Virus record (IMG/VR): IMGVR_UViG_3300037258_000046
Location: 10,209 to 74,208 of that record
Source: a virus
Length of the DNA stretch: 64,000 nucleotides
Direction: 5' to 3' (one strand)
Shown: one piece after another, positions 736 through 62,176 of the stretch
Numbering within the stretch: position 1 is the first letter of the stretch
Layout of the letters: each line of letters begins with the position of its first letter
Notes under the pieces: generated by a model
Told to the model about the DNA's origin: nothing
Databases searched by the model: none
What the model saw: only the letters and a program-made list of their open reading frames with translations
Translations under genes and position numbers: made by a program

Positions 736-778
736 CGCTGCCTCCTCTAGGTCGCGGGTTGCGCGGCGCAGCGTAGCA

Positions 779-1522
779 CTACACGCCGCTGAGCGCTCGC
801 AGCGCAACCGCGCCGTCGCCGCGCAGCTCGACGTGGCGTCCCGGCCCGAGCAGCGTCGCCACAACGTCCGCGACGTCCTCGCGGTCAGCCTCAAGCTGCG
901 TCGCCAGCTCAGCCTCCGTCATCGGCCCGCCACGGATCGCCGCGAGGATCTCGCCCTCCAGCCGCCGCAACCGTGCGGCGCGCTGATTGCCCATCCCGCC
1001 GTTCGTCACACCGTTGCGCTCACGCTCGATCCGGTCCCGATCAGCCGTGATCCAATACCGGGTCGCAGCGGTCTTGCCCTCCGTCGTCACGACCGACCTG
1101 TCGCGAAGCTCCTGGAGCGCCTTCGTCAGCCCACCCGAGCCCATCAGCTCACCCGCGTGCTCAAGCAGCGTCCGGAAGCTCGCGGGCTGATGCTCACGCA
1201 CGAGCTGCTCGACCTTGTCGCGGCGCTCCTGCGTCAGCGCGTCCTGCTCGTCCGTCGACAGCGGCGAGCGCCTGCGCGTCACCGTCGAGCGCAACGGCGG
1301 CAACGCGAGCCCTGTCCCGCGCGTAGCCGTGTCCTGCGACGACGGCGCCGCATCCGACTGCACGTCATGCCGTGCCGCGGGCGCCGGAGCGGGTGACAGC
1401 ACCTCGTACGCCGCGCGCAGCTTCTCCAGATGCCCGTCGAGCGCTTGCACCCGCTCGATCGCCAGCTCGCGCTTCTCTTCCGTCTCGGCGATCTCCGCCG
1501 CCAAAGCCTCCACCGCGCCCAT
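779..1522 (-). CDS. coiled-coil plus tandem winged-helix DNA-binding protein
   Basis: N-terminal coiled coil; wHTH-like segments (LTKALQELRDRSVVTTEG...RYW; PMTEAELATQL...DVVATL); GAGGAGG SD. Confidence 0.6.
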   Translation of the reverse strand: MGAVEALAAEIAETEEKRELAIERVQALDGHLEKLRAAYEVLSPAPAPAARHDVQSDAAPSSQDTATRGTGLALPPLRSTVTRRRSPLSTDEQDALTQERRDKVEQLVREHQPASFRTLLEHAGELMGSGGLTKALQELRDRSVVTTEGKTAATRYWITADRDRIERERNGVTNGGMGNQRAARLRRLEGEILAAIRGGPMTEAELATQLEADREDVADVVATLLGPGRHVELRGDGAVALRALSGV

Positions 1523-1566
1523 CGACCCGCCTCCTCGTCCACCGTCGGATTGCGCGACGCAACGTA

Positions 1567-1851
1567 TCAGCGCACAACGACAGTGCGCTTGCGCTCCGCG
1601 CCACACCGACGGCACTTGTCCAGCTCCACGAAGTAGCCCGGATGCGGACGCCGCATCAGCGCCACGATCCGCCAGTCATGGAACCCCGGCGGGCACTCCG
1701 GCGACGTCGCATTGAGCAGCGCGCTCACCCCCGCACCCGCGACAGCGACAGCGACAGCGAAGATCACGGCCTCGTTGTTCCACGTCGCCGACAGGATCAG
1801 CACCGCGACCATCGTCGCTGCCAGCACGATCAGGCCAGCCCACCCTCGCAT
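1567..1851 (-). CDS. small membrane protein with C-terminal Zn-ribbon-like motif
   Basis: Two hydrophobic segments, C..G.HDW and CRRC; leaderless start 6 nt after TAGGCT. Confidence 0.6.
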   Translation of the reverse strand: MRGWAGLIVLAATMVAVLILSATWNNEAVIFAVAVAVAGAGVSALLNATSPECPPGFHDWRIVALMRRPHPGYFVELDKCRRCGAERKRTVVVR

Positions 1852-1959
1852 GCCGGGAGCCTACAACGCGCGAAGGCGCCTCTTGTCCAGAGACGCCCTC
1901 GCTGACACCGGCTCCGCCGGGGTCGATCGCGCCACCATCGTGTCACGCGCCCCGGACGC

Positions 1960-1996
1960 AAAGAGAGCCGCCCGCGTGCTCGCGCGGACGGCTCCC
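1960..1996 (-). terminator. intrinsic terminator after the collagen-like gene
   Basis: Hairpin 1963-1976/1983-1996 followed by TTT on the minus strand. Confidence 0.6.
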
Positions 1997-2022
1997 TGAG
2001 TGTCTGAGACGACGCCTACAGC

Positions 2023-3000
2023 TTAGCCGTCGATGTTGCCCGTGCCCCCGTTGGCACCGCTCGGCGTGTTGCTATCGACCCACGACTCGTTCGCGTTCGC
2101 GTTCGAGTGATAGACGAAATCGTAGTTGTCGAGCGCGTACGTCGAGCCCGGGAAGTACGCCGCCTCGAACGCCGCGTTGCCCGCCTCGGCGCTAGACCCG
2201 CTCGTCGTGTGAGCATCGCACGCCGAGCAGCTCGCGACCGGATCGAAGTCCGCAGACTCGCCAGCAGCAGGCGCCGGAACGACCCACGACTCCGTGCCGT
2301 AGAACGTGCCAGTCACTCCACCGACCTGCGGCGGCCCCGGGCACGTCCCGGGATTCGGCTCGTCCACCGACGCGATCGTCGTGAACGTGCCCGTGATCAG
2401 CTCCGACACGTCGTAGCTGCCGTCCGGCAACGGGTTGACCTGGAAGGTCCGGCTGTAGCTGTCGTTCGCCCACGCGTTGCCACAGTCGCCGCTATCCGGC
2501 CCCGAGTTGCTCGCGTAGGTGTAGGTGAACGCGCCGTTGCTTCCCGGCGTGCCAGCGGGCCCCTGCGGGCCCTCAGCGCCGTCCGAGCCGTTGAAGCCAC
2601 GCGGACCCTGCTCGCCCTGAACGCCCTGCGGTCCCTGAGCGCCCTGCGCGCCGGTAGCGCCAGTGTCGCCCTTGATGCCGTTCGCGTCCACGCCAGCCAC
2701 GCCCTGCGGGCCCTGCGGGCCCTGCGGCCCGACGGCGCCCTGCGGACCAGCCGGGCCCTGCGGCCCGGGAGCACCCGTCGCACCCGTCAGACCTGTAGCG
2801 CCCGTGTCGCCCTTCGGGCCCTGAATGCCGACCGTGATCGCGTTGCCCTCGAACTTCTTGAGCACGCTCGGCGCGACCTGCGACGTCGACGTGATCAGGT
2901 AGTGGTGCTTCTTCTTGCCCGCGGCCAGCGCCGCGCCTGTACAACCGAACGCCACGACGGCCACAGCCGCCAGCAGCGTCAGGATCTTTGAAACTCGCAT
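2023..3000 (-). CDS. exported collagen-like (Gly-X-Y repeat) protein
   Basis: Signal peptide ([26 protein letters not shown]), about 30 GXY triplets, Cys-containing C-terminal domain. Confidence 0.85.
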
Positions 3001-3056
3001 CAGACCTGCTCCTTGTTCGGGTTGCCCTGCCTAGTAATGCGACACACTGTAGCAGC

Positions 3057-6757: not shown

Positions 6758-7207
6758 TCACTCAGAGCCACCGTCGACCTCCTCCGGGTTCGGCGGATTG
6801 TCGGCGCTGATGCCCTCGCCGCCCTCAGTGCCCGATCCCGCCGTCGACGTCATCAGCTCCTCGCCCGCAGGAACGATCTCCACCTCGCCGTCGGCCTGCT
6901 CGTTCACGACCGACACGATCCCGCTCGCCGTGATCGCCTCGTACTCGACTCTTTCGCCGTGCGCCTGACGCACGCCTCGCACGACGATCGCCCACCGCGT
7001 CGTGTGCTGCCGCAGCCCTTGCGTCTTGAGTCGATCGAGCGGAAGCGGCTCCGGCCGGTACACGAGCAGCATCGCGCGCTCGTTGTTCTCGCCCGTCTCG
7101 ACCGCCGCATGCCCGATCAGCTTGCACGGCCTGCCGAGCTGCTCCTGGAGCTGCCCCATCGCGCTCTCAGCGTCAGCCTTCAACGCTGCCGCCTGCTCCT
7201 TCGTCAT
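6758..7207 (-). CDS. hypothetical protein, first gene of an accessory operon
   Basis: Preceded by the conserved promoter/leader at 7226-7246 and GAGGAGG. Confidence 0.7.
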   Translation of the reverse strand: MTKEQAAALKADAESAMGQLQEQLGRPCKLIGHAAVETGENNERAMLLVYRPEPLPLDRLKTQGLRQHTTRWAIVVRGVRQAHGERVEYEAITASGIVSVVNEQADGEVEIVPAGEELMTSTAGSGTEGGEGISADNPPNPEEVDGGSE

Positions 7208-7277
7208 CGCATCCTCCTCAGTCGTCGGGTTGCGCGGCAGACTGTAGCACCCTGCCGAACGGAATAGCGACCGGAGG

Positions 7278-8287: not shown

Positions 8288-8473
8288 CGGCGTGATGCTA
8301 CCCGTTGCGTGGTCGTCTGCGTCCGTGTTCGTCGTAGTCGCGATCGGAGTGTCTTCCGATGCTTTCTACGCGCTTTGTGCGTCGTGGTGGGGCGCCTGAG
8401 CCGTACTTTCGGCCCATCTCCGGGCCCTGTCGCTTCACCCGTGGCTGTCCCGGGCGTACGCGTTCGTCGTCGG

Positions 8474-9473: not shown

Positions 9474-9675
9474 CAGTCCACCGTCCTCAGCTTCGAGATT
9501 GTCCGCTTCGCGCGCTTGCCGCTCGCGAGCCTCAGAGTCACCATCTGCCCATCGACCGCGATCACCACGCCGATCACGAGCGGCTGCCCCGCACCGTGGC
9601 GGCCGCGGCTCGTGACCCACGCGCCGGGGACGATGCCACGCCCCCAGCGATCGTCTCTCGTGAGCAGCGAGCCCA

Positions 9676-10428
9676 TCAGAGCGCCGCCATCACGCTGCGC
9701 CGCGTCGCCTTCTTCGCGACGTCGGCCCACACGTGGAAAGCGTTGTCGTAGCCCTTAGAGAACCGGCCGACCACCGTTGCGTCGTAGGCGGCGCGCCATG
9801 CGTCGGTCCCGTTGATCGTCGCCGTCACGTCGAGCCCGAACGCGTCTACCAGCTCGTCAACCTTGAGCGCCAGCGAGTGCGCGCGCGGCACCTTCGCCAG
9901 CTCCTTCTCCAGCTTGGCAGCCCCGCGTGCTGCCTTGCGCGCCTCGACCTCGGCGCGCGAGTGAGCCTTCCGCTGCTCCGTCGTCATCTGCGCGACCGGC
10001 GCCGTCGGATAGCAGACCGTGCACGCCGTCATCGCGATCTCGGCGATGATCTCCGCCTCGCTCTTGCCCGACAGCCACGTCTGCCACGTAAAGCTCGTAT
10101 CCCACCGGCAGGTCGAGCAGTCCATCGTCCGGTGCACGTGGCCGCCGTGAGCGGTGCAGAAGAACGCGCGCTCCCAGCCGCCGCGGCGATCGAACTCTGC
10201 GTTGAGGGGAGCCATCTGCTCGCGCAGCTCCGCGAGCTTCGCGGCGTGCTCTTCGAGCCGTGCTGTGCGCTCCGCCAGCTCGCGCTCGCTCTCGGCGCGC
10301 CACGGCATCCGCGGCTTGCTGTCGGCTGCCTGCCATGCGCGTCGCTGCTGGACCTTCCCGTGCAGCTCCGCGAGCTGCTCGTCGATCTCGGGAGGGGTCT
10401 GCTCTGTGATCGGTGTCGTGGTGGTCAT
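9676..10428 (-). CDS. early hypothetical protein with coiled coil and His/Cys metal-binding motif
   Basis: GGHVH..MDCSTC...CTVCYP; strong promoter/leader upstream. Confidence 0.75.
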   Translation of the reverse strand: MTTTTPITEQTPPEIDEQLAELHGKVQQRRAWQAADSKPRMPWRAESERELAERTARLEEHAAKLAELREQMAPLNAEFDRRGGWERAFFCTAHGGHVHRTMDCSTCRWDTSFTWQTWLSGKSEAEIIAEIAMTACTVCYPTAPVAQMTTEQRKAHSRAEVEARKAARGAAKLEKELAKVPRAHSLALKVDELVDAFGLDVTATINGTDAWRAAYDATVVGRFSKGYDNAFHVWADVAKKATRRSVMAAL

Positions 10429-10435
10429 CGTCTGC

Positions 10436-10491
10436 TCCTTAGTTCCGGGTTGCGTTGCAAACTGTAGCACAACGCGGCCCGGACGTGTCAA
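10436..10491 (-). promoter_or_regulatory. strong promoter TTGACA-N19-TACAGT with GCAACCCG leader and SD
   Basis: -35 at 10486-10491, extended -10 at 10461-10466, GCAACCCG at 10446-10453. Confidence 0.85.
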
Positions 10492-10987: not shown

Positions 10988-10988
10988 G

Positions 10989-11300
10989 TCAGATCCCCAG
11001 CGCGCGGCGCTCGGCCTGCCAGAAGCGGCAGATGGGCCCGGTGTACTTCTGCTCCGTGTAGAGCGGCGAGTCGACGATCGCGCGCACCGCCTCGTTGCCC
11101 TTCGCCAGATGGTTGTCGATCGCGCGGCGCGTCGCTGCCGCGTTGCGGCCGGTCAGCGAGCCGTTGCCCATGCGCCGGTCGATCGACGTCAGTCCGTTCG
11201 TCGCGCGCTGGAGCTGCCCTTCGAGCCGCAGCATCTCGCGGACGTCCTGGAAGCTCGGCTCGCTCGTCTGTGTCTGTGTCTGTGTCTGTGTCGTGGTCAT
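10989..11300 (-). CDS. early hypothetical protein with N-terminal TQ repeat
   Basis: AGGAG SD and conserved leader; (ACACAG)n microsatellite encodes TQTQTQTQT. Confidence 0.7.
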   Translation of the reverse strand: MTTTQTQTQTQTSEPSFQDVREMLRLEGQLQRATNGLTSIDRRMGNGSLTGRNAAATRRAIDNHLAKGNEAVRAIVDSPLYTEQKYTGPICRFWQAERRALGI

Positions 11301-11306
11301 CGTCTG

Positions 11307-11355
11307 CTCCTGTCGTCGTCGGGTTGCGTTGCAAACTGTAGCACAACGCAACCCG
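11307..11355 (-). promoter_or_regulatory. conserved promoter/leader embedded in a 12-bp inverted repeat
   Basis: CGGGTTGCGTTG (11320-11331) and CAACGCAACCCG (11344-11355) flank TACAGT. Confidence 0.8.
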
Positions 11356-11760: not shown

Positions 11761-12231
11761 TCAGAACTCGTCGTGGTAGCAGGATGCGCGGTAGGCGGCT
11801 TCGCCGACCTCGTCGCAATACACGTTCGTGCGCTCGCCCTTGACCCACACCTTCGAGCCGCGCTTGAAGACGCGCCGGACGGTGTAGGTGTCATCGAAGG
11901 CTAGGTCGACGGTCACGCTGTAGCCGTGAGCGACCGGGAGAGTAATCCCCGTCTCGCGGACGCCGACGCGGCCGCCGCTGATGCCGAGCACGTTCATGCG
12001 CCCGATCTGCGCGACGATCGTCTTGGCGTCGGCGCGATCGTCGAACTCCTGCGCCGCCGCCTCCTCCGTCTCGCCGACGAACTTCTTGTGGATCGCCAGC
12101 GCGATGTCCTTCGTGTCGATCCCGGTCTGCTCGCTCGCGACGGCCAGCGCTTGCTCGACCGTGGCGCCCGCGTTGCGGCGGCTGTAGAAGTGATCGACTG
12201 CGGCGGGGAGAAGGTTGCTAGTGATGGTCAT
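11761..12231 (-). CDS. early hypothetical protein
   Basis: IVAQIGRMNVLGISGG...VDLAFDDTYTV...VYCDEV; strong promoter upstream. Confidence 0.75.
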   Translation of the reverse strand: MTITSNLLPAAVDHFYSRRNAGATVEQALAVASEQTGIDTKDIALAIHKKFVGETEEAAAQEFDDRADAKTIVAQIGRMNVLGISGGRVGVRETGITLPVAHGYSVTVDLAFDDTYTVRRVFKRGSKVWVKGERTNVYCDEVGEAAYRASCYHDEF

Positions 12232-12237
12232 GTCGGG

Positions 12238-12300
12238 CTCCTTGTCGTTCGTTCCGGGTTGCGTTGCAAACTGTAGCACATCTCCCGGCCGAGCTGTCAA
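12238..12300 (-). promoter_or_regulatory. strong promoter TTGACA-N19-TACAGT with GCAACCCG leader
   Basis: -35 at 12295-12300, -10 at 12270-12275, motif at 12255-12262. Confidence 0.85.
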
Positions 12301-14102: not shown

Positions 14103-14335
14103 GGGAGCGGCCACCGCGCGATCACGCCGTCGGCCTCTTCGTCCGGTCGGTTGTAGTAGCGCGTCAGCATCGCCTTCACGTCCGCATCGGTCCAGCGCCG
14201 CTCGCCGCGGATCTCGTCCTCGGCGTCCAGGATCGCGTCGATCAGGGGATCGGCGAGCGTGCCGAGCCCCGGTGCGATGCCGTCGAGTCGATCTCGCCAC
14301 GCCGCACGCCGCGGCGCGTCGGTTGCTTGTGCCAT
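14099..14335 (-). CDS. hypothetical protein
   Basis: Conserved leader at 14351-14371 plus GAGGAGG. Confidence 0.65.
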   Translation of the reverse strand: MAQATDAPRRAAWRDRLDGIAPGLGTLADPLIDAILDAEDEIRGERRWTDADVKAMLTRYYNRPDEEADGVIARWPLP

Positions 14336-14587
14336 CGTCGCCTCCTCAGTCGGGTTGCGCGACGGAAGGTAGCAGCTCCTCGATCGGCACGTCCTCCTGC
14401 GAGCGGCGCGCGACCATCCTCGAATTGTAGGTGCGCGTCTCGGCTTCCTTGTCGAGCGACACGCGGATCTCGTCCATCCGCTGCTTGCAGCCCGGGCACA
14501 AGAACGACTTCGGCGCGCGCTCGTTCTTGCAGTTGAAGCCGCCGCAGATGTTGCCCTTGCGCTTGCTCGGCGCGAATGCCCCGCGGC

Positions 14588-15712: not shown

Positions 15713-16581
15713 GCGACCACCGCGACTTCCAGCAGCTCCGCCTTCGAGGGGCGCATGAAGAACCCGAAGCTCTCGTCGTCGCGGCTGGCCTCGACCGTCG
15801 CCGTGAACGTCACGCGCGAGCCCTTCTCGACGCCCGGGATCTCCTGATACATGCCGTCTGCGTCGTGGAAGCGCGACATCTCGATCGCGGCCGGAACGCT
15901 CCCCCACACCTTGAAGCCGCGGTCGTCACGGACGAGCATCTTGTGCTGCTCGCCGTAGTCGCTCGTCTGCCACTTCTCCGAGAGCACCTCGCCCGTGATC
16001 ACGATGCGACCCTCGACCACCGGCGCCGTCGGCTCCGGCGCCACGTCCTCGGCGAGCAGGTCGCGAGCCATCGTGCGCATGATCGCCGCGACGTAGCGGT
16101 CGCTCGTCGAGCCGTAGTTGCGGACCTTCTGCGCGAACTTGTGGCAGAACTCGGACGGGTGATCAGCGGCGAAGCCGAACGCCACCTCGCGGTCCGGGTC
16201 GATCGCGAACCACCGCAGCCGGATCGTCTTGATGCGCTGCGCTGCGCGGTCAAGCTCGGCGCGCTTGCGCATCGCGTGGAACTCGCCGGTCGCGCGCTCG
16301 AAGCGATTGTCTAGGCACGTCTCGCCGACGCGGATCAGCTCGCCCGTCGGCAGGTATTCCATCACCGCGTAGTAGCGGATGCGCGCGCCGCAGTGATAGC
16401 AGCTCCCCGCGCTGTAGTTCTCGCCGAACTTCTTGCCGTCTGCCGTCGCCGCGCGAATCGTCGGGTCGATGTAGGCAGGCTCGCCGTCAGCGCCGCCGAA
16501 GTCGCCGCAGCCGACGAACTCGTAATCCTCAGTGACTAGGTTCTTTGGGGCGTGGACGTCGGTGCGAATGTTGCGTGTCAT
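15709..16581 (-). CDS. early protein with Zn-finger and C-terminal OB-fold (ssDNA-binding-like)
   Basis: CYHCG...VGETC; ITGEVLS...YG...KMLV...KVWGS...G.RVTFTATV...FGFF.RP. Confidence 0.7.
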   Translation of the reverse strand: MTRNIRTDVHAPKNLVTEDYEFVGCGDFGGADGEPAYIDPTIRAATADGKKFGENYSAGSCYHCGARIRYYAVMEYLPTGELIRVGETCLDNRFERATGEFHAMRKRAELDRAAQRIKTIRLRWFAIDPDREVAFGFAADHPSEFCHKFAQKVRNYGSTSDRYVAAIMRTMARDLLAEDVAPEPTAPVVEGRIVITGEVLSEKWQTSDYGEQHKMLVRDDRGFKVWGSVPAAIEMSRFHDADGMYQEIPGVEKGSRVTFTATVEASRDDESFGFFMRPSKAELLEVAVVA

Positions 16582-16587
16582 CGTGGG

Positions 16588-16645
16588 CTCCAGTCGTCTC
16601 GGGTTGCGCTGCAAACTGTAGCACAACCGTCGGCGTGTGTGTCAA
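16588..16645 (-). promoter_or_regulatory. strong promoter TTGACA-N19-TACAGT with GCAACCCG leader
   Basis: -35 at 16640-16645, -10 at 16615-16620, motif at 16600-16607. Confidence 0.85.
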
Positions 16646-18151: not shown

Positions 18152-18307
18152 CTACTCGCCGTCGACGTCCTCGCCTTGCTCGCCCTGCTCGGCGTCGCCC
18201 TGCTCCGTCTCCGGCGTCTCCGGCGTCTCGGCGGGCTCCTGCGTGATCTCCACATCGCCGTCGCCGTGCTGCTCGACGTGCACTCCGTCTCGCTGCTCTT
18301 CCGTCAT
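18152..18307 (-). CDS. 51-aa highly acidic protein (not in the ORF track)
   Basis: AAGGAG SD; MTEEQRDGVHVEQHGDGDVEITQEPAETPETPETEQGDAEQGEQGEDVDGE. Confidence 0.6.
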   Translation of the reverse strand: MTEEQRDGVHVEQHGDGDVEITQEPAETPETPETEQGDAEQGEQGEDVDGE

Positions 18308-18355
18308 CGCCTGCTCCTTCGTCGGGTTGACCGCCCGGGAGACTACCCGGACGGT

Positions 18356-19150
18356 CTACGCCTCTACCGGCTCGGCTTCGCGCGGCGCCAGCCCGGCCGC
18401 AGCAGCAGCAGCGCCGAACTGCGCCAGATGCAGCTCTTCGACGTACGCCAGCCGCGCGTCGACGGCCGTGTCCGATGCCGTGTCGACCGCGGGCGCGTCG
18501 CCGCGCTTGCGCGCGAACGCGTTGACCAGCTCGATCGCGGTCCCGACCGCCTGCTCCGTGACCGCGACGTCGTCGAGACGCACGTCGGCGCCGGGCTCGG
18601 CGAAGTCGTTGAAGAACGCCAGCTCGCACAGCATCAGCGCGTTCCCGCCGCGGCGCGGCCGCAGCACGCCGAGCTTCTCGCGCGACGTCGAGATCCACTT
18701 CACGACCGCCACGCGGTCGGTCTTGTGCAGCGCTTGCGTGAGCAGCTTGAGCGCCGGGCCCGTGCCGTTGCGCGGCTGAACCCAATACGAGCCGACGATG
18801 CGCTCCGTCGGCACCGATCGGTAGTCGATCGTCTCCAGCACCTCCATCGCCGGATGCGCCTCGACCGACGCCTCCGTGATCGCCGCGAGCCGCTCAGGGT
18901 CGAGCTTGATCACGCGGCTGTCGCTGACGCGCACCGCCTTGTAGACGCCATCTGCGGGCGTCCGCGAGCCGCCGCCGCCGCCGCCCATGGTCGACGTGAC
19001 CGGCACCGCCTCGCCCGTCTCCGGGTCGACCTCGTCGCGAACGTACTCCGTCTTCGGCTCACGGCTGTGCACCGTCTTCGCGAACGAAACCTCAAGCTGA
19101 AAGTCGCCAAATGCGATCGCCGTGTTCCGTGCTCCACGTCCTGCCATCAC
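18356..19150 (-). CDS. ku: Ku-like DNA end-binding protein
   Basis: IAFG...V; SYWVQP; LLTQAL..TDRVAVVKW...REKLGVLRP...LML..LAF match the prokaryotic Ku core. Confidence 0.85.
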   Translation of the reverse strand: MMAGRGARNTAIAFGDFQLEVSFAKTVHSREPKTEYVRDEVDPETGEAVPVTSTMGGGGGGSRTPADGVYKAVRVSDSRVIKLDPERLAAITEASVEAHPAMEVLETIDYRSVPTERIVGSYWVQPRNGTGPALKLLTQALHKTDRVAVVKWISTSREKLGVLRPRRGGNALMLCELAFFNDFAEPGADVRLDDVAVTEQAVGTAIELVNAFARKRGDAPAVDTASDTAVDARLAYVEELHLAQFGAAAAAAGLAPREAEPVEA

Positions 19151-19189
19151 TGCCTCCTGTCTGTCGGGTTGCGCGACAGACTGTAGCAG

Positions 19190-20455: not shown

Positions 20456-20543
20456 GCCGCATCACCTTCGACGCGAGCCACATCGCCACGAACGGCGCAG
20501 CGGCCAGCGCTCCGTACCACCATGTCGAGAAGTCTCTGTGCAT
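20448..20543 (-). CDS. 31-aa membrane peptide
   Basis: AAGGAG SD and conserved promoter/leader at 20559-20579. Confidence 0.55.
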   Translation of the reverse strand: MHRDFSTWWYGALAAAPFVAMWLASKVMRRG

Positions 20544-20584
20544 CGCCAGCTCCTTAGTCGGGTTGCGCGACACACTGTAGCAGC

Positions 20585-22864: not shown

Positions 22865-23320
22865 TCAGCCCGTCGCGGACGCCGGGTCTGCCGCTGCGTC
22901 GGCGATCGCCTCGACGAACGTCGGGCGAAGCACCTGCCGGATCTTGTAGCCGACGATCCGGCCCTCCTTGCGCTTCACCACGACCTGCGCCGCCGTCGCG
23001 ATCTCGTAGCTGACCATCACGCGGCCCGGACTGTCCGGGTCGATCATGCCCGCGCTGACCGGCACCTCCGCCGACATCAGCGACGCCGTGACCTCGACCG
23101 GCAGGCCCGGCTTGATCAGGTTCTTGAGCGTCTTCTTTGGATCGCCCTCGACCGTCCCGAGCGGGAACAGCTCCTCCTGCTCGTCGTCGTCGGCCATCTC
23201 CGCGATCGACTTGCCGTCAGCCGCCGCGGCTTCTGCGGCTTCGCGGTCTTGGCGCTCCTGCCGCCGCCGCGCTATCTCGTTGTCCGCTGATGTTGCCTCG
23301 TTCTCGTCTTCCACCGTCAT
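22865..23320 (-). CDS. hypothetical protein
   Basis: GAGGAGGA SD fused to GCAACCCG at 23336-23343. Confidence 0.7.
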   Translation of the reverse strand: MTVEDENEATSADNEIARRRQERQDREAAEAAAADGKSIAEMADDDEQEELFPLGTVEGDPKKTLKNLIKPGLPVEVTASLMSAEVPVSAGMIDPDSPGRVMVSYEIATAAQVVVKRKEGRIVGYKIRQVLRPTFVEAIADAAADPASATG

Positions 23321-23532
23321 CGGTGTCTTCCTCCTCGGGTTGCTTGAGATGGACGCGCACCACGGGCCCGAGCCCGGGCACCACGTTCGCCGCGACCGAT
23401 CCGACAGCCTCGATCAGCAGCGCCTTCCTACCTTCCTGCAACAGCTCGCCTTCTGTGACGATCACCACGTCGATGATCGCCACGTCGAGCGGTTCACTGT
23501 ACGCCTCGCCGGGCGCGAGAGTGATCCTCAGC

Positions 23533-25802: not shown

Positions 25803-27002
25803 CTAGAAGTCGACTGAATCGTCGCCGCTGCTACGCGGACGCCACCCGAGCGGCACGCCGAGCGTCGTGAGCTGCTGATCGAGCCAATTCAGCTCGTCGA
25901 CCAGCTCGGCGTCCTGCTTCTCGTTCGCGTTCTCGCGCAGCTCGTCGATCGCCGTCAGGCGCTCTAGGAACGGGTGCACCTGCGCACGCCACGTCGCGTC
26001 GCTCTCCCACCGCGCCTGCGCCGCAGTCCAGTCCGCGCCCGTCTCCTCGCCCGCCTCGGGCTCCACGTCGCCGGAGACGGCCTCCTGCGCGCCCTCGACG
26101 CCGTTCTCGGCCATCGCAGCCTCAGCGCTCGGCGACACATCGTCAGCCACGACGACGGCATCCTCCGGCTCGTTCTCGGCAAGCCACTGCTCCAGCTCGC
26201 GCTTCACCTGAGCGAGCTGCACCGGAGTCGCGCCCTGCGTCCTCGCGCGCAGCACGCCCTCCGTGAACGCCGTCGGGTCCAAGTCGCGGATGCGCTCATA
26301 CAGCGGAGCGATCTCCGGATCGAGCGGCTGAAAGTCACCGACGTCGGCGGCGCCAAGGCCACCGCTTGCGCCCGGCAGGTCGAGCCCAGCGCCCAGCTCG
26401 TCGAAGGGCACTGGCCCGGACACGCCATAGGTGATTCGCGTGATGTAGCTCGTCGCGGCTTTGACCATCATCGCGTGCAGAAATGACCATGCCGACCTCG
26501 CAGCGTCTTTGGCGTACTCCGCCCTCGGGGCGTAGAAGTAGCGATCCGGCTTGCCCTGACGGCGCAGGATCGCGTACGCGCCCACGACCTCGCCCCGCTT
26601 GCTCGGGTGGTCGTACTCGTGCACGATCGTGCGCTTGCCGTTCTCGGCGCGCCGAACGCGAAAGACGTCGTTCTCGCACACGACGTCGGCGTCGACGTCG
26701 ATGAAGTGCTCGTCGCGGCGCGCGATCTTGAGGTAGCCATCACGGCCGACCATGACCGCGAGCCTCCCCGGCGCGCCGTTCTTGCCCGGCATCTGCGCCA
26801 GCCAAATCTCGTTCAGCAGCGGATTCAGGTCGAGCGCCGCCGCCTCTTCGAGATAGCGCTGGAGCAGCGCCGTGTCGTTGATCGCGGGCGCGCCAACCGT
26901 GGCGGCAATCGTCGAGACGAGCGCCGGACTAAAAGTGCGCTTCGCCGCGGCGGAGAGACGGACTACGTTCGTGCCCGGAGCGGGCGGAGATTGCGTTGGC
27001 AT
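25803..27002 (-). CDS. bet: RecT/Bet-family single-strand annealing recombinase
   Basis: LNPLLNEIW...VGRDGYLKIA.R...GAYA..R...EY...W...M..K; upstream of the exonuclease. Confidence 0.8.
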   Translation of the reverse strand: MPTQSPPAPGTNVVRLSAAAKRTFSPALVSTIAATVGAPAINDTALLQRYLEEAAALDLNPLLNEIWLAQMPGKNGAPGRLAVMVGRDGYLKIARRDEHFIDVDADVVCENDVFRVRRAENGKRTIVHEYDHPSKRGEVVGAYAILRRQGKPDRYFYAPRAEYAKDAARSAWSFLHAMMVKAATSYITRITYGVSGPVPFDELGAGLDLPGASGGLGAADVGDFQPLDPEIAPLYERIRDLDPTAFTEGVLRARTQGATPVQLAQVKRELEQWLAENEPEDAVVVADDVSPSAEAAMAENGVEGAQEAVSGDVEPEAGEETGADWTAAQARWESDATWRAQVHPFLERLTAIDELRENANEKQDAELVDELNWLDQQLTTLGVPLGWRPRSSGDDSVDF

Positions 27003-27054
27003 CGTGGACTCCGTTCGGGTTGCAGTGCGAGCACCCTAGCAGCCGTGCCAAACG

Positions 27055-27095
27055 AAAAAACGGGCCGCCCGGGGAAGGTGTTCCGGGCGGCCCGT
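27055..27095 (-). terminator. strong intrinsic terminator
   Basis: CGGGCCGCCCGG/CCGGGCGGCCCG stem followed by TTTTTT. Confidence 0.9.
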
Positions 27096-27153
27096 GAGTG
27101 CAGCACCCCGACAATGACCAGTGCAACCCGGACGTAGGAGGGGGCGCCGCTTC
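27055..27153 (-). ncRNA. putative antisense small RNA complementary to the conserved GCAACCCG-SD leaders
   Basis: -10 TATGAT at 27160-27165; 10-bp stem 27141-27150/27100-27109; loop CUCCUACGUCCGGGUUGCAC; terminator at the 3' end. Confidence 0.65.
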
Positions 27154-27171
27154 CTACGCATCATAGCCGCT

Positions 27172-50175: not shown

Positions 50176-50429
50176 CAGAACGGCAGATCGTCGGCGTGGT
50201 CGACGATCGCGACGGCCGGGCGAATCACACGCACGAGCTTGTAGTCAGCGACCACCGCGCGAGCCTCGCGAATGCCCTCCGGCTCCGGGCCCTGCTCCCA
50301 GCTATGAACGGCCATCGCGTCGTACGGGTCGAAGCCCATCGACACCGCGCCCATGCCCACCTCGGCCGCGATCTCGCTCGCCTGCTCCTCCCACTCCTCG
50401 ATCGTGGTGAAGGCTTCATCTACGGTCAT
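50175..50429 (-). CDS. early-type hypothetical protein
   Basis: Conserved promoter/leader at 50452-50472; acidic DDLPF C-terminus. Confidence 0.65.
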   Translation of the reverse strand: MTVDEAFTTIEEWEEQASEIAAEVGMGAVSMGFDPYDAMAVHSWEQGPEPEGIREARAVVADYKLVRVIRPAVAIVDHADDLPF

Positions 50430-50488
50430 CGTCTGCTCCTGTCGGTCGGTTCGGGTTGCGCCGCAAACTGTAGCACAACGCGAACCGC

Positions 50489-52746: not shown

Positions 52747-52961
52747 GTGACCGGCCCTCCCGCCTCGCGCGAGAACGACGCGAGCACGCGCGGCAGAAGC
52801 ACCGTCTCCTCCGTCGCCTCGATCGTGAAGTCAGCCACGCCGCGCAGGCGTAGCTCCATCGCCAGCTTCTCGGCGATCACGGCAACGGCGCCCGCCGCCT
52901 CCTGCTCGCCGTCGTCCGCCTCCGTAGCGCGGACCTCAATCGTGTACTTCGCTGTCGCCAT
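52743..52961 (-). CDS. hypothetical protein
   Basis: AAGGAGT SD and conserved leader at 52978-52998. Confidence 0.6.
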   Translation of the reverse strand: MATAKYTIEVRATEADDGEQEAAGAVAVIAEKLAMELRLRGVADFTIEATEETVLLPRVLASFSREAGGPVT

Positions 52962-53129
52962 CGTTCACTCCTTCGTTCGGGTTGCGCTACACAGTGTAGC
53001 AGTCCCCGTTACGGAGTGTCGCGCGACTAGGTCAGCGGATGGCCTTGATGATCCACACGAACAGCGCCACCGCTGCCAGTGCGAGCACCGCGATCAGGAG
53101 ATCCCCCGCGACGGTCCCGAGCGCCAACA

Positions 53130-53523: not shown

Positions 53524-53865
53524 TCATCCGAGCGCGAGCGCGAGCACGACACCCTCGTCGGGCTCCAGCTCCTCCAGATCCTCAAGCGCCGCCATCAACG
53601 AAGCGCTCACCCGCTGAAACCGCGACGGCGCACCCGACCAGCACCGCTCGAACTCGTCCTTAGTCGCCTCCAGCACCGCACGCCACTCACGCCGCTCGAC
53701 CGTCGCATGCGGCCAGCTCTTCTCGCTCACCATCCGCTGCCAGCTCGCGGCCCACGCCGCCTCGAAGTCCACCTCACCCGCAGCGCGCGCCTCGCTCAGC
53801 AGCTCCCGCATCCGAACACACGGCCGCGGCTTGCGGCGGATCGTTCGACGTATTGCCTCAGCCAT
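53524..53865 (-). CDS. hypothetical protein
   Basis: GAGGAGGT SD. Confidence 0.6.
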   Translation of the reverse strand: MAEAIRRTIRRKPRPCVRMRELLSEARAAGEVDFEAAWAASWQRMVSEKSWPHATVERREWRAVLEATKDEFERCWSGAPSRFQRVSASLMAALEDLEELEPDEGVVLALALG

Positions 53866-53874
53866 GCGACCTCC

Positions 53875-54549
53875 TCATAGGGTTGCCAACGCGCCGACGG
53901 CCGCCGACACGTAGTCCATCGTGCACCTGCAACCACCCCCGCACTGCGTCGACCCGTCACCCGGGAACGCAGGCCAATCCGCCTCAGCCATCGGCGGCTG
54001 ATCGCCCATGTACTCGCAGTCACCGCAGCTCGCGTCATCGTCGGCGCAGATCCACGCCAGCAGCTTCCCGTCCGCGTTCGCTGCCTGCGCGAACCCGTGC
54101 TGCTCACCGCCCCACACCGCGAGCCCCGCGCCCATCGCCAGCCGGTAGGCGTTCGACTTCGCCCACGCCGCGACCGCCGCCGCACTCGTGCGCCCCGGAT
54201 GGTCCTTCGAGCCCGGCGCCAGCTCCGGCGTCGTGTTGACCGCCGTGACCTCCCCGACCATCTTGTCGATCGACGCGTACGCCTTCCTGAGCGCCTGCGC
54301 CTTGCGATTCGGGTCAGGCTGCTTCGGAGCGACGAACTTTCGGTGTCGCGCCGCGTACACGGCTGCTACGGCCGCCTGCCCGTCCCGGCGCATGTGCTCA
54401 CGCTCCTCGGGCGTGAAGTCCTCGCCGTCGTCGGGATCCGCGTCCGGCACGTACGCCGCCACCCCGCGCGCCCATGCCTCGTCGTAATAGCGATCGAGCA
54501 GCTCGCGCTGCTTGGCCGCCCAGCTCGCCAGAGCGTTCGCGGGGAGCAC
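53875..54549 (-). CDS. MuF-like minor head protein
   Basis: W...DD..C.DC...PGDG.T.C...CRC; follows the portal. Confidence 0.7.
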   Translation of the reverse strand: MLPANALASWAAKQRELLDRYYDEAWARGVAAYVPDADPDDGEDFTPEEREHMRRDGQAAVAAVYAARHRKFVAPKQPDPNRKAQALRKAYASIDKMVGEVTAVNTTPELAPGSKDHPGRTSAAAVAAWAKSNAYRLAMGAGLAVWGGEQHGFAQAANADGKLLAWICADDDASCGDCEYMGDQPPMAEADWPAFPGDGSTQCGGGCRCTMDYVSAAVGALATL

Positions 54550-59536: not shown

Positions 59537-60126
59537 CAGAGCCTCCATTGCCCGAAGCTGCCAGCGACAGCCACGTCGGTATCGAACACGCGACCGTAGC
59601 CGACCTGCCGCAGACGCGCATCCGCATGCCAGCGGCCCTCCGACCACGCCTCCGTCTGATAGCCCCACCCGACGGCCTCGTGATCGAACAGCACCGCCAT
59701 CGTGTCGAACCCGCCATACGCGCCGTTCAGACGCGGCGGCGAATGCGCCTCCAGCCCATCGAAGTACGGCAGGATGATCGACGGCGCCGGAGACGTGTCG
59801 AAGTCGACCGCGAAGTAGATCGGCGCGTCGTCGGGCTGTCCCGCCTCCCCCGCGAGCCGCCGCGCGATCTCCGCGTCCTGAGCGCCCGCTGCCTCGCCGT
59901 CGCGTGCGCGCGTCCCTGAGCCCTCGTAGACGCTCACGATCGACAGCCCCGCCTCGCTGTAGGCGTGCGCGCGAGCGCGCGTCAGGCACTTGCCCGGCAC
60001 CTCCGCAAGGTAGGCGATCACGAAGTCCGCGCCCGCCTCCTTGGCCTCCGCGACCGTCACGACGTAGGCGTCGATGCCGCGCGCCTGCTGCGACATGCGC
60101 GGGTCGATCTTGTGGACGCCGATCAC
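59536..60126 (-). CDS. DUF1906 (Rv2525c/GH25-like) glycoside hydrolase
   Basis: FV.AYL...K.LT...AGLSIVSVYE...PIYFAVDFD...GAYG...QT.AWS. Confidence 0.85.
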   Translation of the reverse strand: MIGVHKIDPRMSQQARGIDAYVVTVAEAKEAGADFVIAYLAEVPGKCLTRARAHAYSEAGLSIVSVYEGSGTRARDGEAAGAQDAEIARRLAGEAGQPDDAPIYFAVDFDTSPAPSIILPYFDGLEAHSPPRLNGAYGGFDTMAVLFDHEAVGWGYQTEAWSEGRWHADARLRQVGYGRVFDTDVAVAGSFGQWRL

Positions 60127-60836
60127 TTGTTCACGCCCCTCTCGCGCCAGTCGCCGACGATCGCGAGCGCGTTGTTCGCGTACGCGTCGGCCGCGGCGCC
60201 CGAGCCGTTGTAGTGGTAGAACGCTGCCCACAGCGACCCCGTCTCGTGGATCAGCTCCAGAAAGAACTCGTCGCCCTCCGCGCAGTTGTGCTCGGGGATC
60301 CATGCGCCGCCGCGCCTATTCGCCGCCGCGATCAGGCTGGCGCTCGTGAGCTGCTTCGCGCCGACACCGTTGCTCACGGCGCCCTTCTCGACCTCGCTCC
60401 AGAACCACTTGAAGTTCCCGGGCGTGACCGGCCGCTCCCACAGCGTCCCGAACGGGCCGCGGTTCATCCAGCTCGACGCCGGATCGGCGCCGTAGATGTT
60501 GCGGCCACCCGATTCGAGCTGCGTCGTCGTGCACGCCACGGCCGTCTCCAGCCCGACGTAGTCAGCGGCGAACACCTCCGGCACGCCGTCGAGCAGGTAG
60601 CGCGAAACGGTCGTCGCGCGGACGATCTGATGCGGCGTCAGCTTGAGCTTCACGGTCGCGCCGTGGCGCAGCTCCGGCATCTCGTAGTCCTGCTCCGTCA
60701 GCGTCGGCTGCTCGCGCTCGGCGATCCGCGCGATGACCTTCTCGCGCAGCTCCGTGCGCTCCTCGTCGCTCGGCAGATCCTCCTGACTCTCATACTCCGG
60801 GTACTCCAGCGGCAGCAACTCCACTTCGTCAGGCAT
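60123..60836 (-). CDS. lysozyme-like/lytic transglycosylase endolysin
   Basis: ESGG.NIYG.D...GVG..QLT...YNGSG..A..YA. Confidence 0.75.
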   Translation of the reverse strand: MPDEVELLPLEYPEYESQEDLPSDEERTELREKVIARIAEREQPTLTEQDYEMPELRHGATVKLKLTPHQIVRATTVSRYLLDGVPEVFAADYVGLETAVACTTTQLESGGRNIYGADPASSWMNRGPFGTLWERPVTPGNFKWFWSEVEKGAVSNGVGAKQLTSASLIAAANRRGGAWIPEHNCAEGDEFFLELIHETGSLWAAFYHYNGSGAAADAYANNALAIVGDWRERGVNK

Positions 60837-61179
60837 GTCCAGCTCCTCGCTCGGGTTGCGGTTGGTCCTCAAGATAGCGGCGGCCCGCATCGGTCAGCGC
60901 GTACGCCGCCCCGCTGCGCCCATCCCGACGGCCCACATGGGCGATCAGCCCGCGGCCGCGACTCAGCGACGTGAGCACCGGGATGATCTGCTGCGCCAGC
61001 CCGAACGTGCGCGACCCTCTCCCGCGACCGCCCTGCCCGCGACCGCCTTGGATTATGCGCGCGCCGATCGCGTGCCCGATCTCGTTCGGCGTCATCGGGT
61101 AGCTGCTCGTGCGGCGCGCGCGGTCGAGCCCCTTGAGCACCTTGAGCTGTAGATCGGTCAGCGGCCGATCACTCGTCAT
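60829..61179 (-). CDS. winged-helix DNA-binding protein
   Basis: LT.LQL.VL..L...TP.EIG...L.SL...GLI...YALTDAGR. Confidence 0.6.
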   Translation of the reverse strand: MTSDRPLTDLQLKVLKGLDRARRTSSYPMTPNEIGHAIGARIIQGGRGQGGRGRGSRTFGLAQQIIPVLTSLSRGRGLIAHVGRRDGRSGAAYALTDAGRRYLEDQPQPERGAGHA

Positions 61180-61474
61180 AGCCGCTCGCGTTCCGGTACG
61201 CGTCGAGCGCGAGCCCGTCGGCCTGATCGCCGAGCCGCATGTGCTCCATCGCGTGCGCGACCGACGCCGCGGTGCTGTCGCCGAGATAGTCGCTTGACTG
61301 CGGGAACGGCGGAGGGTTCGGCAGCCACGCCCGCTCGACGTCTTCGAGGATCCGCCAGCGACCGTGACGGTCGTAGTACTCCACGCCATCCTTCGAGATC
61401 CGCAGCATCACGTGCGCCGTCGCCGTGCCATCCGGCTCGGCGTGCATCAGCGTGACCGCCTGCACCGTGCTCAC
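61169..61474 (-). CDS. hypothetical protein
   Basis: GTGA-coupled start. Confidence 0.5.
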   Translation of the reverse strand: MSTVQAVTLMHAEPDGTATAHVMLRISKDGVEYYDRHGRWRILEDVERAWLPNPPPFPQSSDYLGDSTAASVAHAMEHMRLGDQADGLALDAYRNASGYDE

Positions 61475-62139
61475 GACTCCGCCCCCGTCTCCGGCAGCTC
61501 GACGCTTCCGCCGAAGTTCCACGCCAGCCGCACCTCGTCAGCGACATTTAGCCCCGACTGAATCACGAGCGCCTCGCCATCCGCGAATCGCAGCACAAGG
61601 CGCGGCATGACGAAATCCCCCAGCCGGAAGGTGTTGCGCTCAATCGAGACGCCGCGCTTCGCGAGCTGCTGATCGAACCACTCCGGCGAGAACTCCTCCT
61701 CCTCCTCGGGCGACTCGACGACGCCATCGGCGCTCGTGCCCGCGAAGTGCCGCGCATCGAATCTCGGCGCGCCCTCGCGGAAGACTCGCTCGGCGATCAC
61801 CGCGCGCACCTTCCACGCGTCGCGATCAGAGATCAACTGCCGCACCTGCTCGGCCCCGGCCTGCCGCGTCTGCTCCCACGTCGCGCGCTCACGCTCAAGC
61901 GTCGCCCGCAGCCCGACAAGCTCGTCGTGCTGCTCCGTCAGCGTCGACTGCTCGCGCTCGGCGAGCAAAAACACTTCGAGCCCCGCCGGAGAAACTTCGA
62001 GCACCTCGACCGCGTACTCAAGCGCCGCGTCCTGCGTCTCGAAACCGTCGATCGGCTGCCGCAGCAGCGATCCCCTATGTCCCGTCAGTCGCGGCTGCCT
62101 CGCCACGTACCAGCGGCCCGGAGTGAACAGCATCGCCAT
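61471..62139 (-). CDS. coiled-coil hypothetical protein
   Basis: AGGAGG SD and conserved leader at 62156-62176. Confidence 0.65.
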   Translation of the reverse strand: MAMLFTPGRWYVARQPRLTGHRGSLLRQPIDGFETQDAALEYAVEVLEVSPAGLEVFLLAEREQSTLTEQHDELVGLRATLERERATWEQTRQAGAEQVRQLISDRDAWKVRAVIAERVFREGAPRFDARHFAGTSADGVVESPEEEEEFSPEWFDQQLAKRGVSIERNTFRLGDFVMPRLVLRFADGEALVIQSGLNVADEVRLAWNFGGSVELPETGAES

Positions 62140-62176
62140 CGTCGCCTCCTGTAGTCGGGTTGCGCGACAGAATGTA

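Follow-up and report, generated by a model that had tools for sequence, protein, structure and literature searches.

Small RNAs of phages P1 and P7 (c4) and of phage P4 (CI) carry short exposed segments that pair with targets, including a ribosome-binding site, and shut off the downstream genes. Each is cut out of a longer transcript, and its one or two targets belong to its own operon. At the DNA level, operators placed over an extended -10 box are a generic arrangement of phage early promoters, and phiC31 has conserved inverted repeats. The start-associated sequences (SAS) of Cluster K mycobacteriophages are asymmetric short motifs present as 11-19 co-oriented copies just upstream of the starts of unrelated non-structural genes, with inverted repeats (extended SAS, ESAS) upstream of about half of the copies and a consensus that differs between sub-lineages (PMC3203893; PMC12699233). 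The motif can contain the stop codon of the preceding gene, and Cluster K1 genomes each have one reversed SAS away from gene starts; the function of SAS was still unknown in 2025, and no antisense RNA has been proposed for them in these papers (PMC3203893; PMC12699233). Cluster A phages carry stoperators, 13-14-bp DNA sites bound by the immunity repressor throughout both genome arms, one copy of which overlaps an early promoter (PMC9283540, PMC6550527). Here we describe an eight-base motif, GCAACCCG, in 64,000 nucleotides of a soil phage (the window: bases 10209-74208 of the 74.2-kb IMG/VR viral contig IMGVR_UViG_3300037258_000046, which is ~70% complete and has a GC content of 69%). Judged from sequence comparison, the 8-mer is best explained as an RNA-level tag that is read, along with the Shine-Dalgarno (SD) sequence, by a conserved phage small RNA.

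The motif is a real, strongly non-random element. Exact GCAACCCG occurs 25 times in the window against 2.67 ± 1.64 times in dinucleotide shuffles, none of 100 of which reached 25. The enrichment implied by the original prediction is borne out, over a chance level of ~1.3 copies per strand and not the 2-3 that had been estimated. The minus strand, which is the coding strand for essentially all genes of the window, carries 20 of the 25 copies; 17 of these 20 have an SD and a start codon within 25 nt, and 16 fall within the ~3.6% of the sequence that lies just upstream of starts (binomial P ~4e-20). All 16 copies first reported are exact minus-strand matches followed by GGAG or GGAGG and by an ATG 13-23 nt downstream. 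Twelve exact copies, the number originally given, stand exactly 7 nt from a TANNNT hexamer (62156, 52978, 50452, 20559, 19165, 16600, 14351, 12255, 11320, 10446, 7226 and 755), and the consensus of these N7-spaced cassettes is tgTGCTACAgTnTGccGC-GCAACCCG-Ac. Three more leaders are headed by one-mismatch variants: TCAACCCG at 18323 (TAGTCT at 9 nt) and GCAACCCT at 53879 (no promoter), both noticed previously, and GCAATCCG at 1546, which had been missed and brings to 13 the leaders with a 7-nt spacing to an extended -10 box. The motif ends 1-13 nt upstream of a separate GGAG or GGAGG, and the tag-bearing leaders are short (21-31 nt) and A/C-rich. To call the element genome-wide was too strong: the structural operons (~27.2-50.4 kb) are free of it except for the copy at 34856, which has its own SD and GTG, and the 10 kb of contig that lie beyond the window have no copy. 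The motif leads the genes for RecT (Pfam PF03837) and Ku (PF02735), as had been claimed; the lysozyme-like gene claimed along with them finds no support, since no motif-led gene is recognisably of that kind in Pfam or PHROGs. The sites are as follows.

733..778, minus strand: cassette, TGC-TACGCT-N7-GCAACCCG at 755-762, SD, ATG 735
1520..1569, minus strand: variant cassette, TGA-TACGTT-N7-GCAATCCG at 1546-1553, SD, ATG 1522
2998..3054, minus strand: displaced cassette, intact TGC-TACAGT-gTGTCGC promoter and palindrome, 13-nt insertion, GCAACCCG at 3018-3025, SD, ATG 3000 of a collagen-repeat protein
7205..7249, minus strand: cassette, TGC-TACAGT-N7-GCAACCCG at 7226-7233, SD, ATG 7207
10426..10491, minus strand: cassette, TTGACA 10486-10491, N19, TACAGT, N7, GCAACCCG at 10446-10453, SD, ATG 10428
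11298..11355, minus strand: cassette, GCAACCCG at 11320-11327, SD, ATG 11300
12229..12300, minus strand: cassette, TTGACA 12295-12300, N19, TACAGT, N7, GCAACCCG at 12255-12262, SD, ATG 12231
14333..14374, minus strand: cassette, TGC-TACCTT-N7-GCAACCCG at 14351-14358, SD, ATG 14335
16579..16645, minus strand: cassette, TTGACA 16640-16645, 19-nt spacer, TACAGT 16615-16620, N7, GCAACCCG at 16600-16607, SD, ATG 16581
18305..18345, minus strand: variant cassette, TAGTCT, 9 nt, TCAACCCG at 18323-18330, SD, ATG 18307 of a 51-residue product
19145..19188, minus strand: Ku cassette, GCTACA-gtc-TGTCGC, GCAACCCG at 19165-19172, SD, ATG 19147
20541..20582, minus strand: cassette, GCTACA-gtg-TGTCGC with TACAGT, GCAACCCG at 20559-20566, SD, ATG 20543 of a short open reading frame (ORF) that precedes the HTH_17 gene (20195-20455)
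23318..23343, minus strand: promoter-less copy at 23336-23343, at the end of the upstream ORF (..VHLKQPEEE..), 1 nt before SD AGGAGG, ATG 23320
27000..27041, minus strand: RecT cassette, TGC-TAGGGT, 9 nt, GCAACCCG at 27016-27023, SD GGAG, ATG 27002; directly downstream of the terminator of the candidate small RNA
34841..34863, minus strand: intragenic copy in a tail gene, motif at 34856-34863, CAGGAG-N6-GTG (34843) in frame
50427..50475, minus strand: cassette, TGC-TACAGT-N7-GCAACCCG at 50452-50459, SD, ATG 50429
52959..53001, minus strand: cassette, perfect palindrome GCTACA-ctg-TGTAGC, -10 box TACACT, GCAACCCG at 52978-52985, SD, ATG 52961
53863..53886, minus strand: promoter-less variant, GCAACCCT at 53879-53886 over the last codons and stop of the upstream ORF, SD GAGGAGG, ATG 53865
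60834..60859, minus strand: promoter-less copy, GCAACCCG at 60852-60859, 5 nt before the SD, ATG 60836; it lies in the last codons (..DQPQPERGAGHA*) of a winged-helix-like upstream ORF
62137..62179, minus strand: cassette, TGA-TACATT-N7-GCAACCCG at 62156-62163, SD, ATG 62139 of a 222-residue orphan

TGC, the -10 box and the 7-nt linker together form one 6-3-6 palindrome, GCTACA-nnn-TGTCGC, which lies ahead of 13 of the 20 copies and is perfect at 52978, where a second palindrome-like site is found 22 nt upstream. An extended -10 box of the form TG(C/A)-TAC(A/G/C)nT is present in 13 cassettes, with the predicted transcription start placed as it is at leaderless genes, both here and in the relatives. 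The motif thus occupies the expected transcript start, as had been proposed: it lies 7 nt after TANNNT, where the relatives have their leaderless start codons. A sigma-70-type -35 box at 17 ± 1 bp is lacking; TTGACA occurs in three cassettes only (16640-16645, 12295-12300 and 10486-10491), each time 19 bp from the -10 box and not the usual 17. The host polymerase or a DNA-twisting regulator might account for this spacing. The motif is invariant in 16 copies, the linker varies at 4 of 7 positions and the motif-SD spacer (1-13 nt) cannot be aligned. Two subclasses of near-identical cassettes can be distinguished. In this phage the motif is strictly one-sided, with 13 copies to the right of the palindrome and 0 to the left (at least 7 of 8 matches), and it shows perfect conservation next to an inner palindrome that is often degenerate. 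The promoter and palindrome part of the cassette is ordinary, an early promoter overlapped by an operator-like dyad, and the palindrome over the -10 box is probably a separate DNA-level operator for some phage regulator. The palindrome, not the 8-mer, resembles the generic phage operator: GCTACA-N3-TGTCGC covers the -10 box at many early promoters, its half-sites are lineage-specific and in relatives it is often paired. The 11320 cassette has a perfect 12-bp inverted repeat, CGGGTTGCGTTG (11344-11355) with CAACGCAACCCG (11316-11327), around the -10 box; in read-through RNA this repeat would hide the motif in a hairpin, and the 10446 cassette has an 11/13 version of it.

A second class of promoter in the window has neither palindrome nor motif. 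TAGGMT, TATCCT or TAGCAT is followed 6-7 nt on by ATG or GTG, which would yield leaderless mRNAs. The gene starts concerned head structural operons and some early genes.

53474, 49868, 46382, 31187, 14890, 8287 and 1851: gene starts with second-class promoters

The original likening of the motif to SAS is apt, and SAS are its closest published analogue (PMC3203893; PMC12699233). Like SAS, the copies have one prevailing orientation (20 of 25 on the coding strand) and stand upstream of the starts of non-structural genes. Lineage-specific inverted repeats lie upstream in both, with half-sites here reading ACA/TGT against ACC/GGT in the relatives G002 and G004. The right repeat of K4 phages can run up to the start codon, an arrangement also seen at the leaderless starts of G002 and G004. 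In other respects the two differ. The 13-bp SAS consensus GGGATAGGAGCCC is not found with ≤2 mismatches, and GCAACCCG has no resemblance to it. SAS contains the SD and lies 3-7 nt from the start, whereas the tag here stands apart from the SD and has a fixed position with respect to the -10 box. ESAS are 17-bp repeats with a variable spacer, in contrast to the 6-3-6 palindrome over the -10 box, and the phage lineage, a myovirus here, is unrelated. We therefore regard the element as an analogue of SAS and not as a member.

A promoter is lacking at four copies, three of them overlapping the final codons of the gene upstream and the fourth inside the tail gene, where it possibly marks an internal start; each is 1-5 nt before an SD. 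At 23336, 60852 and 53879 there is neither a -10 box nor a palindrome, and the codons overlaid read K-Q-P-E-E-E, D-Q-P-Q-P-E-R-G-A-G-H-A-stop and A-L-A-T-L-stop, respectively. Where the promoter is displaced, at 3018 and at 3658 and 6419 of G002, the motif stays with the SD. Of the four copies originally said to have a displaced or absent -10 box, 3018 (with its 13-nt insertion), 23336 and 60852 (with none) fit this description, whereas 27016 has TAGGGT at 9 nt. The leaders have no conserved intramolecular structure, and the probability of being unpaired, P(unpaired), is 0.51 for the motif against 0.49 for shuffled 8-mers. A makes up 50% and C 29% of the bases between tag and SD, compared with ~15% A in the genome as a whole.

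One reversed copy of the motif lies in non-coding DNA of the window, within an element at 27165-27055 that has the makings of a small RNA.

27055..27165, minus strand: candidate ~100-nt small RNA ("anti-leader RNA"), -10 box TATGAT at 27165-27160, predicted 5' end near 27153
27150-27141 with 27109-27100, minus strand: 10-bp stem enclosing the antisense loop
27141-27123, minus strand: antisense loop, CCUCC (anti-SD) at 27141-27137, 6-nt spacer UACGUC, anti-motif CGGGUUGC at 27130-27123
27093-27062, minus strand: intrinsic terminator, 13 bp, U6, U-run to 27055, with the RecT cassette next

The stop codon of the last tail-fibre gene (27172) stands just before the TATGAT. The unit folds with -59.3 kcal/mol (z -3.2), and the antisense box lies mostly in the loop, with a P(unpaired) of 0.65 against 0.35 for the rest of the unit. 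The combination of anti-SD and anti-motif is a single instance on the coding strand of the 74-kb contig, with 0.1-0.3 expected. The box is complementary to the 20 tagged leaders of the window. Its best matches there are the leaders at 10446 and 12255 (GCAACCCGGA), each with 10 contiguous pairs, and not the RecT leader. Pairing is retained through G.U in all of the internal tag variants GCAAUCCG, GUAACCCG, GCGACCCG and CCAAUCCG, and the C-to-U change of GCAATCCG at 1546 still pairs as a G.U wobble.

Antisense immunity RNAs such as c4 and CI are the mechanistically nearest known kind. They share with the candidate RNA an exposed segment complementary to the region of the ribosome-binding site, here CCUCC-N6-CGGGUUGC facing 20 leaders. 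They differ from it in that ~20 dispersed mRNAs are tagged here and the predicted RNA has an apparent -10 box and terminator of its own. The predicted RNA and its target co-vary across relatives at a syntenic locus. There is no sequence or Rfam relationship, and we claim no membership.

The unit recurs in relatives. A unit between the tail genes and RecT is present in G006, G007, G008 (L015/L457), G011 (L465), G012 (L461) and G013 (L463), whose proteins are 27-40% identical to those of this phage; the last three came to light with the exonuclease as anchor, which gave 16 usable RecT loci. In seven genomes the unit has a -10 box (TATGAT, TACGAT, TATCAT, TATGCT, TATTCT, TAGACT or TAGCCT) and an intrinsic terminator, with a weak -35 region, and in every unit-bearing genome the antisense box lies 100-170 nt upstream of the tagged RecT leader. 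Four tag/anti-tag types occur, which are, as box and RecT leader, CGGGUUGC/GCAACCCG, CUCGGGUA/UACCCGAG, UUCGGGUGGUG/CACCACCCGAA and UCCUUGGUCGG/CCGACCAAGGA. In the alignment with G006 and G007, tag and box have an ACCCG/CGGGU core in common, with matching changes on either side of it, among them an A.U to U.A exchange. Duplexes of box and leader have energies of -24.5 to -29.9 kcal/mol within a lineage, -18 to -19 kcal/mol across lineages and -13 to -16 kcal/mol with shuffled leaders. A complement of at least 10 nt to the genome's own leader was found at 4 of the 16 RecT loci, against 2.9% with swapped leaders, a control that is inflated by related genomes. The proposed small-RNA mechanism is well supported by this comparison.

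G006 (77.8 kb) and G007 (86.2 kb) are complete genomes with 27-38% protein identity to this phage and the same order of modules. Their unit consists of the upstream stop codon, TACGAT or TATCAT, 24-27 nt, UCCUC-GUGCGG-CUCGGGUA or CCUCUUC-GUGCGA-CUCGGGUA, and a terminator, past which RecT is preceded by a promoter and an SD-bearing (U)ACCCGAG leader. The tag TACCCGAG heads 9-12 leaders per genome (counts 9+6 in G006 and 9+3 in G007). In G008 (62% GC) the unit lies between a fibre gene and RecT and comprises TATGCT, CCUCC, a GGGG-aa-CCCC mini-hairpin, CGGUCGGGUUGC and a terminator; the RecT leader is CCAAUCCGACCG. The remaining boxes and leaders are given below.

G011 (L465): box UUCGGGUGGUG, leader CACCACCCGAA
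G012 (L461): box GUCGGGUUGC, leader gcACCCGAC
G013 (L463): box UCCUUGGUCGG, leader CCGACCAAGGA

The tag count of G011 is 8+3 against 0/0 in the controls, and that of G012 is not above its control. In G013 tag and SD are contiguous (CCGACCAAGGA); this 11-mer has 21 exact copies, 16 on the coding strand and 5 reversed, including the one upstream of RecT, and the other reversed copies may belong to additional antisense units or to oppositely oriented genes. In G006 another antisense element, ACUCCUAAC..CUCGGGUA (63741-63800, L444), lies over the stop codon of a 363-residue ORF, followed by a hairpin and then by another tagged leader. A covariance model built from three sequences was weak and beyond its training set recovered G008 only, a RecT-anchored scan gave one unrelated low-GC phage only, and a generic detector for any tag and its antisense gave an excess of false positives in GC-rich DNA.

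Two further relatives, G002 (69 kb) and G004 (43.6 kb), were found via baseplate homologues in viral contigs; their baseplate proteins are 42-44% identical to those of this phage. Single-protein scans with RecT and with the baseplate protein found none, the exact composite pattern had no match in IMG/VR, and of 84 matches in a palindrome-plus-motif scan of IMG/VR only those in G002 and G004 are real, the others being chance or a coding motif. A metagenome scan with the cassette of this phage gave only coding coincidences of the type Tyr-x-Leu-x-Arg-Asn-Pro. The palindrome G(C/T)(G/T)ACC-N3-GGT(C/A)(G/A)C has 30 copies in G002 and 19 in G004, with 3-5 expected. Its left arm and loop supply the -10 box, and leaderless start codons lie 0-10 nt past its right arm, in the place that GCAACCCG takes in leadered genes. 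A G(C/T)AAC(C/G) tag is found in 9 of 11 SD-bearing leaders of G002 and G004 but in 1 of 20 SD-less leaders of at least 8 nt (Fisher 2.5e-5). Since the same palindromic promoter drives leaderless genes without the motif, the promoter does not need the motif. The motif is kept in both genomes although their -10 hexamers differ, and the RecT homologue of G002 (27% identical) is also motif-led. The palindrome half-sites have shifted jointly between the phages, from ACC/GGT in G002 and G004 to ACA/TGT here, a joint change of the kind that an operator or a hairpin would show. The promoter-less copies before an SD, the association of the tag with SD-bearing leaders and the co-varying antisense element favour the RNA-level role that had been suggested at the outset, and the original interpretation as a whole is partly supported, and in the main right.

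We propose that GCAACCCG forms the first eight bases, or nearly so, of the leaders of one class of mRNA, mostly for recombination (RecT, Ku) and orphan accessory genes. Most would start from a compact cassette in which an extended -10 box (TGC-TACAGT) inside the 6-3-6 palindrome is followed by the motif at ~+1 to +8, the SD and the start codon. A phage RNA of ~100 nt, running from 27153 to 27055 between the tail genes and RecT, would display CCUCC-N6-CGGGUUGC, and the motif would be the docking site for its loop. By pairing to tag and SD the RNA would hide the ribosome-binding site, and the ~20 tagged mRNAs would then be repressed together once the RNA accumulates; we infer pairing in trans, with repression rather than activation as its outcome. 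On balance, docking of a phage small RNA that covers the SD is the probable role of the motif.

Several points weigh against this proposal. The phage is known from DNA soil metagenomes only, and the leader 5' ends and the small RNA are predictions; the -35 region of the small-RNA promoter is weak. Seven of the 16 RecT loci have no antisense unit. G002, which has the same tag, has no convincing unit and instead carries a sense, leader-like copy upstream of RecT. Taken alone, the antisense element of this window could be a decayed inverted cassette, because its opposite strand reads GACAAT-N7-GCAACCCG. The 20 tagged leaders pair better with the box than do 62 untagged SD leaders (Mann-Whitney P 2.6e-9), but there is some circularity in this, since having the complement is what defines a tagged leader. 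The variants that preserve pairing through G.U are all transitions and could therefore arise by mutation bias alone. With RNAduplex on long segments the energies do not discriminate at 69% GC. Leader and inverted copy would also co-vary if a single DNA-binding protein recognised both as inverted sites. The element may act locally (in cis) and nowhere else, because the complementarity tested across genomes is that to the neighbouring RecT leader. To these points are added the inverted copies of the motif on both sides of the -10 box at 11320 and its symmetric placement in G002, which are taken up below.

In G002 a non-coding region of ~400 nt at ~18320-18410, minus strand (L094/L093), contains a tRNA-like sequence (GGAGGGGTGGCAGAGCGGTTGAATGC...) and also CCUCGUGC-N12-GGGUUGC, possibly a diverged antisense unit in a non-syntenic position.

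The alternative that survives best, although we consider it unlikely, is a DNA operator. In this reading GCAACCCG is the outer arm of a dyad (CGGGTTGC-GCGACC-N3-GGTCGC-GCAACCCG) bound by a phage regulator that blocks initiation at +1; promoter-less copies would act as stoperator-like roadblocks, and the reversed copy before RecT would provide another site in inverted orientation. The flanks of the G002 palindrome are indeed symmetric, gGGGTTGC on the left and GCAACCgg on the right, with 3 strong copies on each side, a symmetry which makes it probable that the motif arose from the outer arm of a more extended DNA palindrome. The inverted copies on either side of the -10 box at 11320 and 10446, the spacing that is fixed to the -10 box but variable to the SD, the joint change of the inner half-sites and the pairing of G002 and G004 palindromes 33-46 nt apart, like cooperative operators, would all suit a bound protein. 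The one-sidedness and perfect conservation of the motif beside an often degenerate inner palindrome would not. Nor would leaderless genes that use the palindromic promoter without the motif, a motif that tracks the SD, or promoter-less copies that lack the palindrome and stand 1-5 nt from the SD. In seven genomes the reversed copy at the RecT locus carries an anti-SD and is framed by a -10 box and a terminator, and a binding site needs neither. No recognisable repressor was found among the encoded proteins, and no integrase or serine recombinase, in a contig that is ~70% complete. Stoperators are the nearest DNA-level analogue, being likewise many co-oriented, asymmetric short sites at or near gene boundaries; they differ in that the sites here, bar 34856, avoid the structural operons, track the SD and have an RNA-like antisense partner. 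The repressor operator that was first offered as an alternative is weakened by these findings, yet the symmetric flanks in G002 still speak for it.

The motif might instead act on RNA without forming a regulon with the antisense element, which would work in cis only and mask the RecT SD in read-through from the tail operon. In that case the tags of the ~19 remaining leaders would serve an RNA-binding protein of phage or host, or the ribosome, as a standby or enhancer site for SD-led initiation in a host with many leaderless mRNAs. This appears improbable. Its appeal lies in the box standing close upstream of the tagged RecT leader in every unit-bearing genome, in the A- and C-rich tag-SD spacer, which is unstructured and enhancer-like, and in the association of the tag with SD-led leaders. 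However, a conserved -10 box precedes the antisense box, and because a strong terminator separates box and RecT leader the two will rarely be on one RNA. The best box matches are the 10446 and 12255 leaders and not that of RecT, and the motif has no special accessibility. As to the ribosome, the 3' tail of 16S rRNA should be unable to pair with the motif, judging from the known 3' end sequence.

Very unlikely, in our judgement, is a motif with no function of its own, kept by descent in a cassette that spreads by duplication or as micro-homology for exchange of modules by RecT. Cassettes do stand ahead of unrelated orphan genes and include two near-identical subclasses, and the phage encodes both RecT and a PD-(D/E)XK exonuclease. 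Descent alone does not readily account for an 8-mer invariant in 16 copies next to a variable linker and an unalignable SD spacer, for its retention in G002 and G004 with differing -10 hexamers, or for its maintenance within coding sequence at three gene junctions. A reading as the -35 box of an extracytoplasmic function (ECF) sigma promoter has next to no probability: the motif is literally identical to some Streptomyces coelicolor sigma-E -35 boxes (sites of the form G(G/C)AAC(C), including CGCAACCCGA; PMC6767563) and CGATG is frequent at start codons, but the GCAACC-CGAT distance ranges over 13-22 nt in place of the fixed ~16-17-nt spacer needed, the start would fall inside coding sequence beyond the SD, and no sigma region 2 is encoded in the contig, which has one weak region-4-like helix-turn-helix at 7278-8048 (18 bits, under the cut-off).

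Start-associated motifs have been known in actinobacteriophages since 2011 with their mechanism unexplained, and the small-RNA tag proposed here offers a concrete, testable one. If it is correct, one small RNA would serve ~twenty mRNAs, a phage-encoded post-transcriptional regulon of unusual size and a simple way in which accessory genes could be timed or silenced; every phage would also have an orthogonal pair of tag and antisense RNA usable as genetic parts. Our literature search found no paper on a tag/anti-tag small-RNA regulon in actinophages. Tentatively, and with more doubt than for the docking site itself, one may picture a family of high-GC myophages with private RNA "address codes", each marking early or accessory genes with its own tag beside the SD and encoding one antisense RNA at the RecT locus, so that translation of the whole regulon would be under its control and tag and anti-tag would co-evolve; the SAS of Cluster K may work alike. 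The present case suggests re-examining Cluster K SAS for a transcript across the reversed SAS.

In the Cluster K1 Mycobacterium phage Anaya the reversed SAS (L454, 59870-59882) is on the coding strand in the 385-nt non-coding gap between gp96 and gp97. It follows a terminator-like hairpin and overlaps a promoter-like pair, TTGACC-N17-TATCCC. By analogy this position fits the logic of tag and anti-tag, and proves nothing.

The gene content of the window is that of a myovirus. A structural block assigned with PHROGs and Pfam runs from ~56.6 to 27.2 kb (portal, protease/capsid, sheath, tape measure, baseplate and fibres) and is followed by RecT, the PD-(D/E)XK exonuclease, a DnaC-like loader, RusA, Ku, an HTH_17 protein and many orphans. 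No close relative was found among isolated phages by megablast or tblastn, and tRNA and Rfam scans of the window found nothing. The same phage is present in several soil metagenomes, without variants in the four soil DNA runs compared over 7210-27200. The ORF at 12361-12900 has an Rpf-type transglycosylase domain (PF06737, 40 bits), which lies outside the tape measure. An actinobacterial host is suggested by this domain together with Ku, the leaderless starts and the GC content. A scan of bacterial genomes for prophage relatives was uninformative for host assignment, the best match having 33% identity, in Firmicutes.

Some minor features of the window remain. In the 330-nt gap ahead of the 16600 cassette, a small Cys-rich ORF (16642-16869; CxC...CxxC, zinc-ribbon-like) holds a chance in-frame copy of the motif (16697, M-R-N-P-E). 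The ORF at 23217-23654, upstream of the gene starting at 23320, continues, in a different frame, for ~100 nt into that gene; an overlap or a frameshift is conceivable, as is a mere effect of the long open frames of GC-rich DNA. A second oligomer, GCTTGAGG, has 14 coding-strand copies against ~1 expected, always intragenic; 3 lie upstream of the window and the others at the positions below.

56584, 53587, 53175, 44355, 41453, 30831, 24844, 19097, 8252, 7596 and 896, coding strand: copies of GCTTGAGG in the window

In the examples inspected GCTTGAGG encodes Leu-Glu with the rare CTT codon. GGGGATCT (11 copies against 1.2 expected) behaves in the same way, and a DNA-level signal (Chi-like, methylation or packaging) is possible for both. 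Finally, GCGCAACCC, the motif with its flank as at 20559-20568, reads the same as the universal 1100 primer site of 16S rRNA, CAACGAGCGCAACCC, and is not its complement; the match is probably a coincidence.

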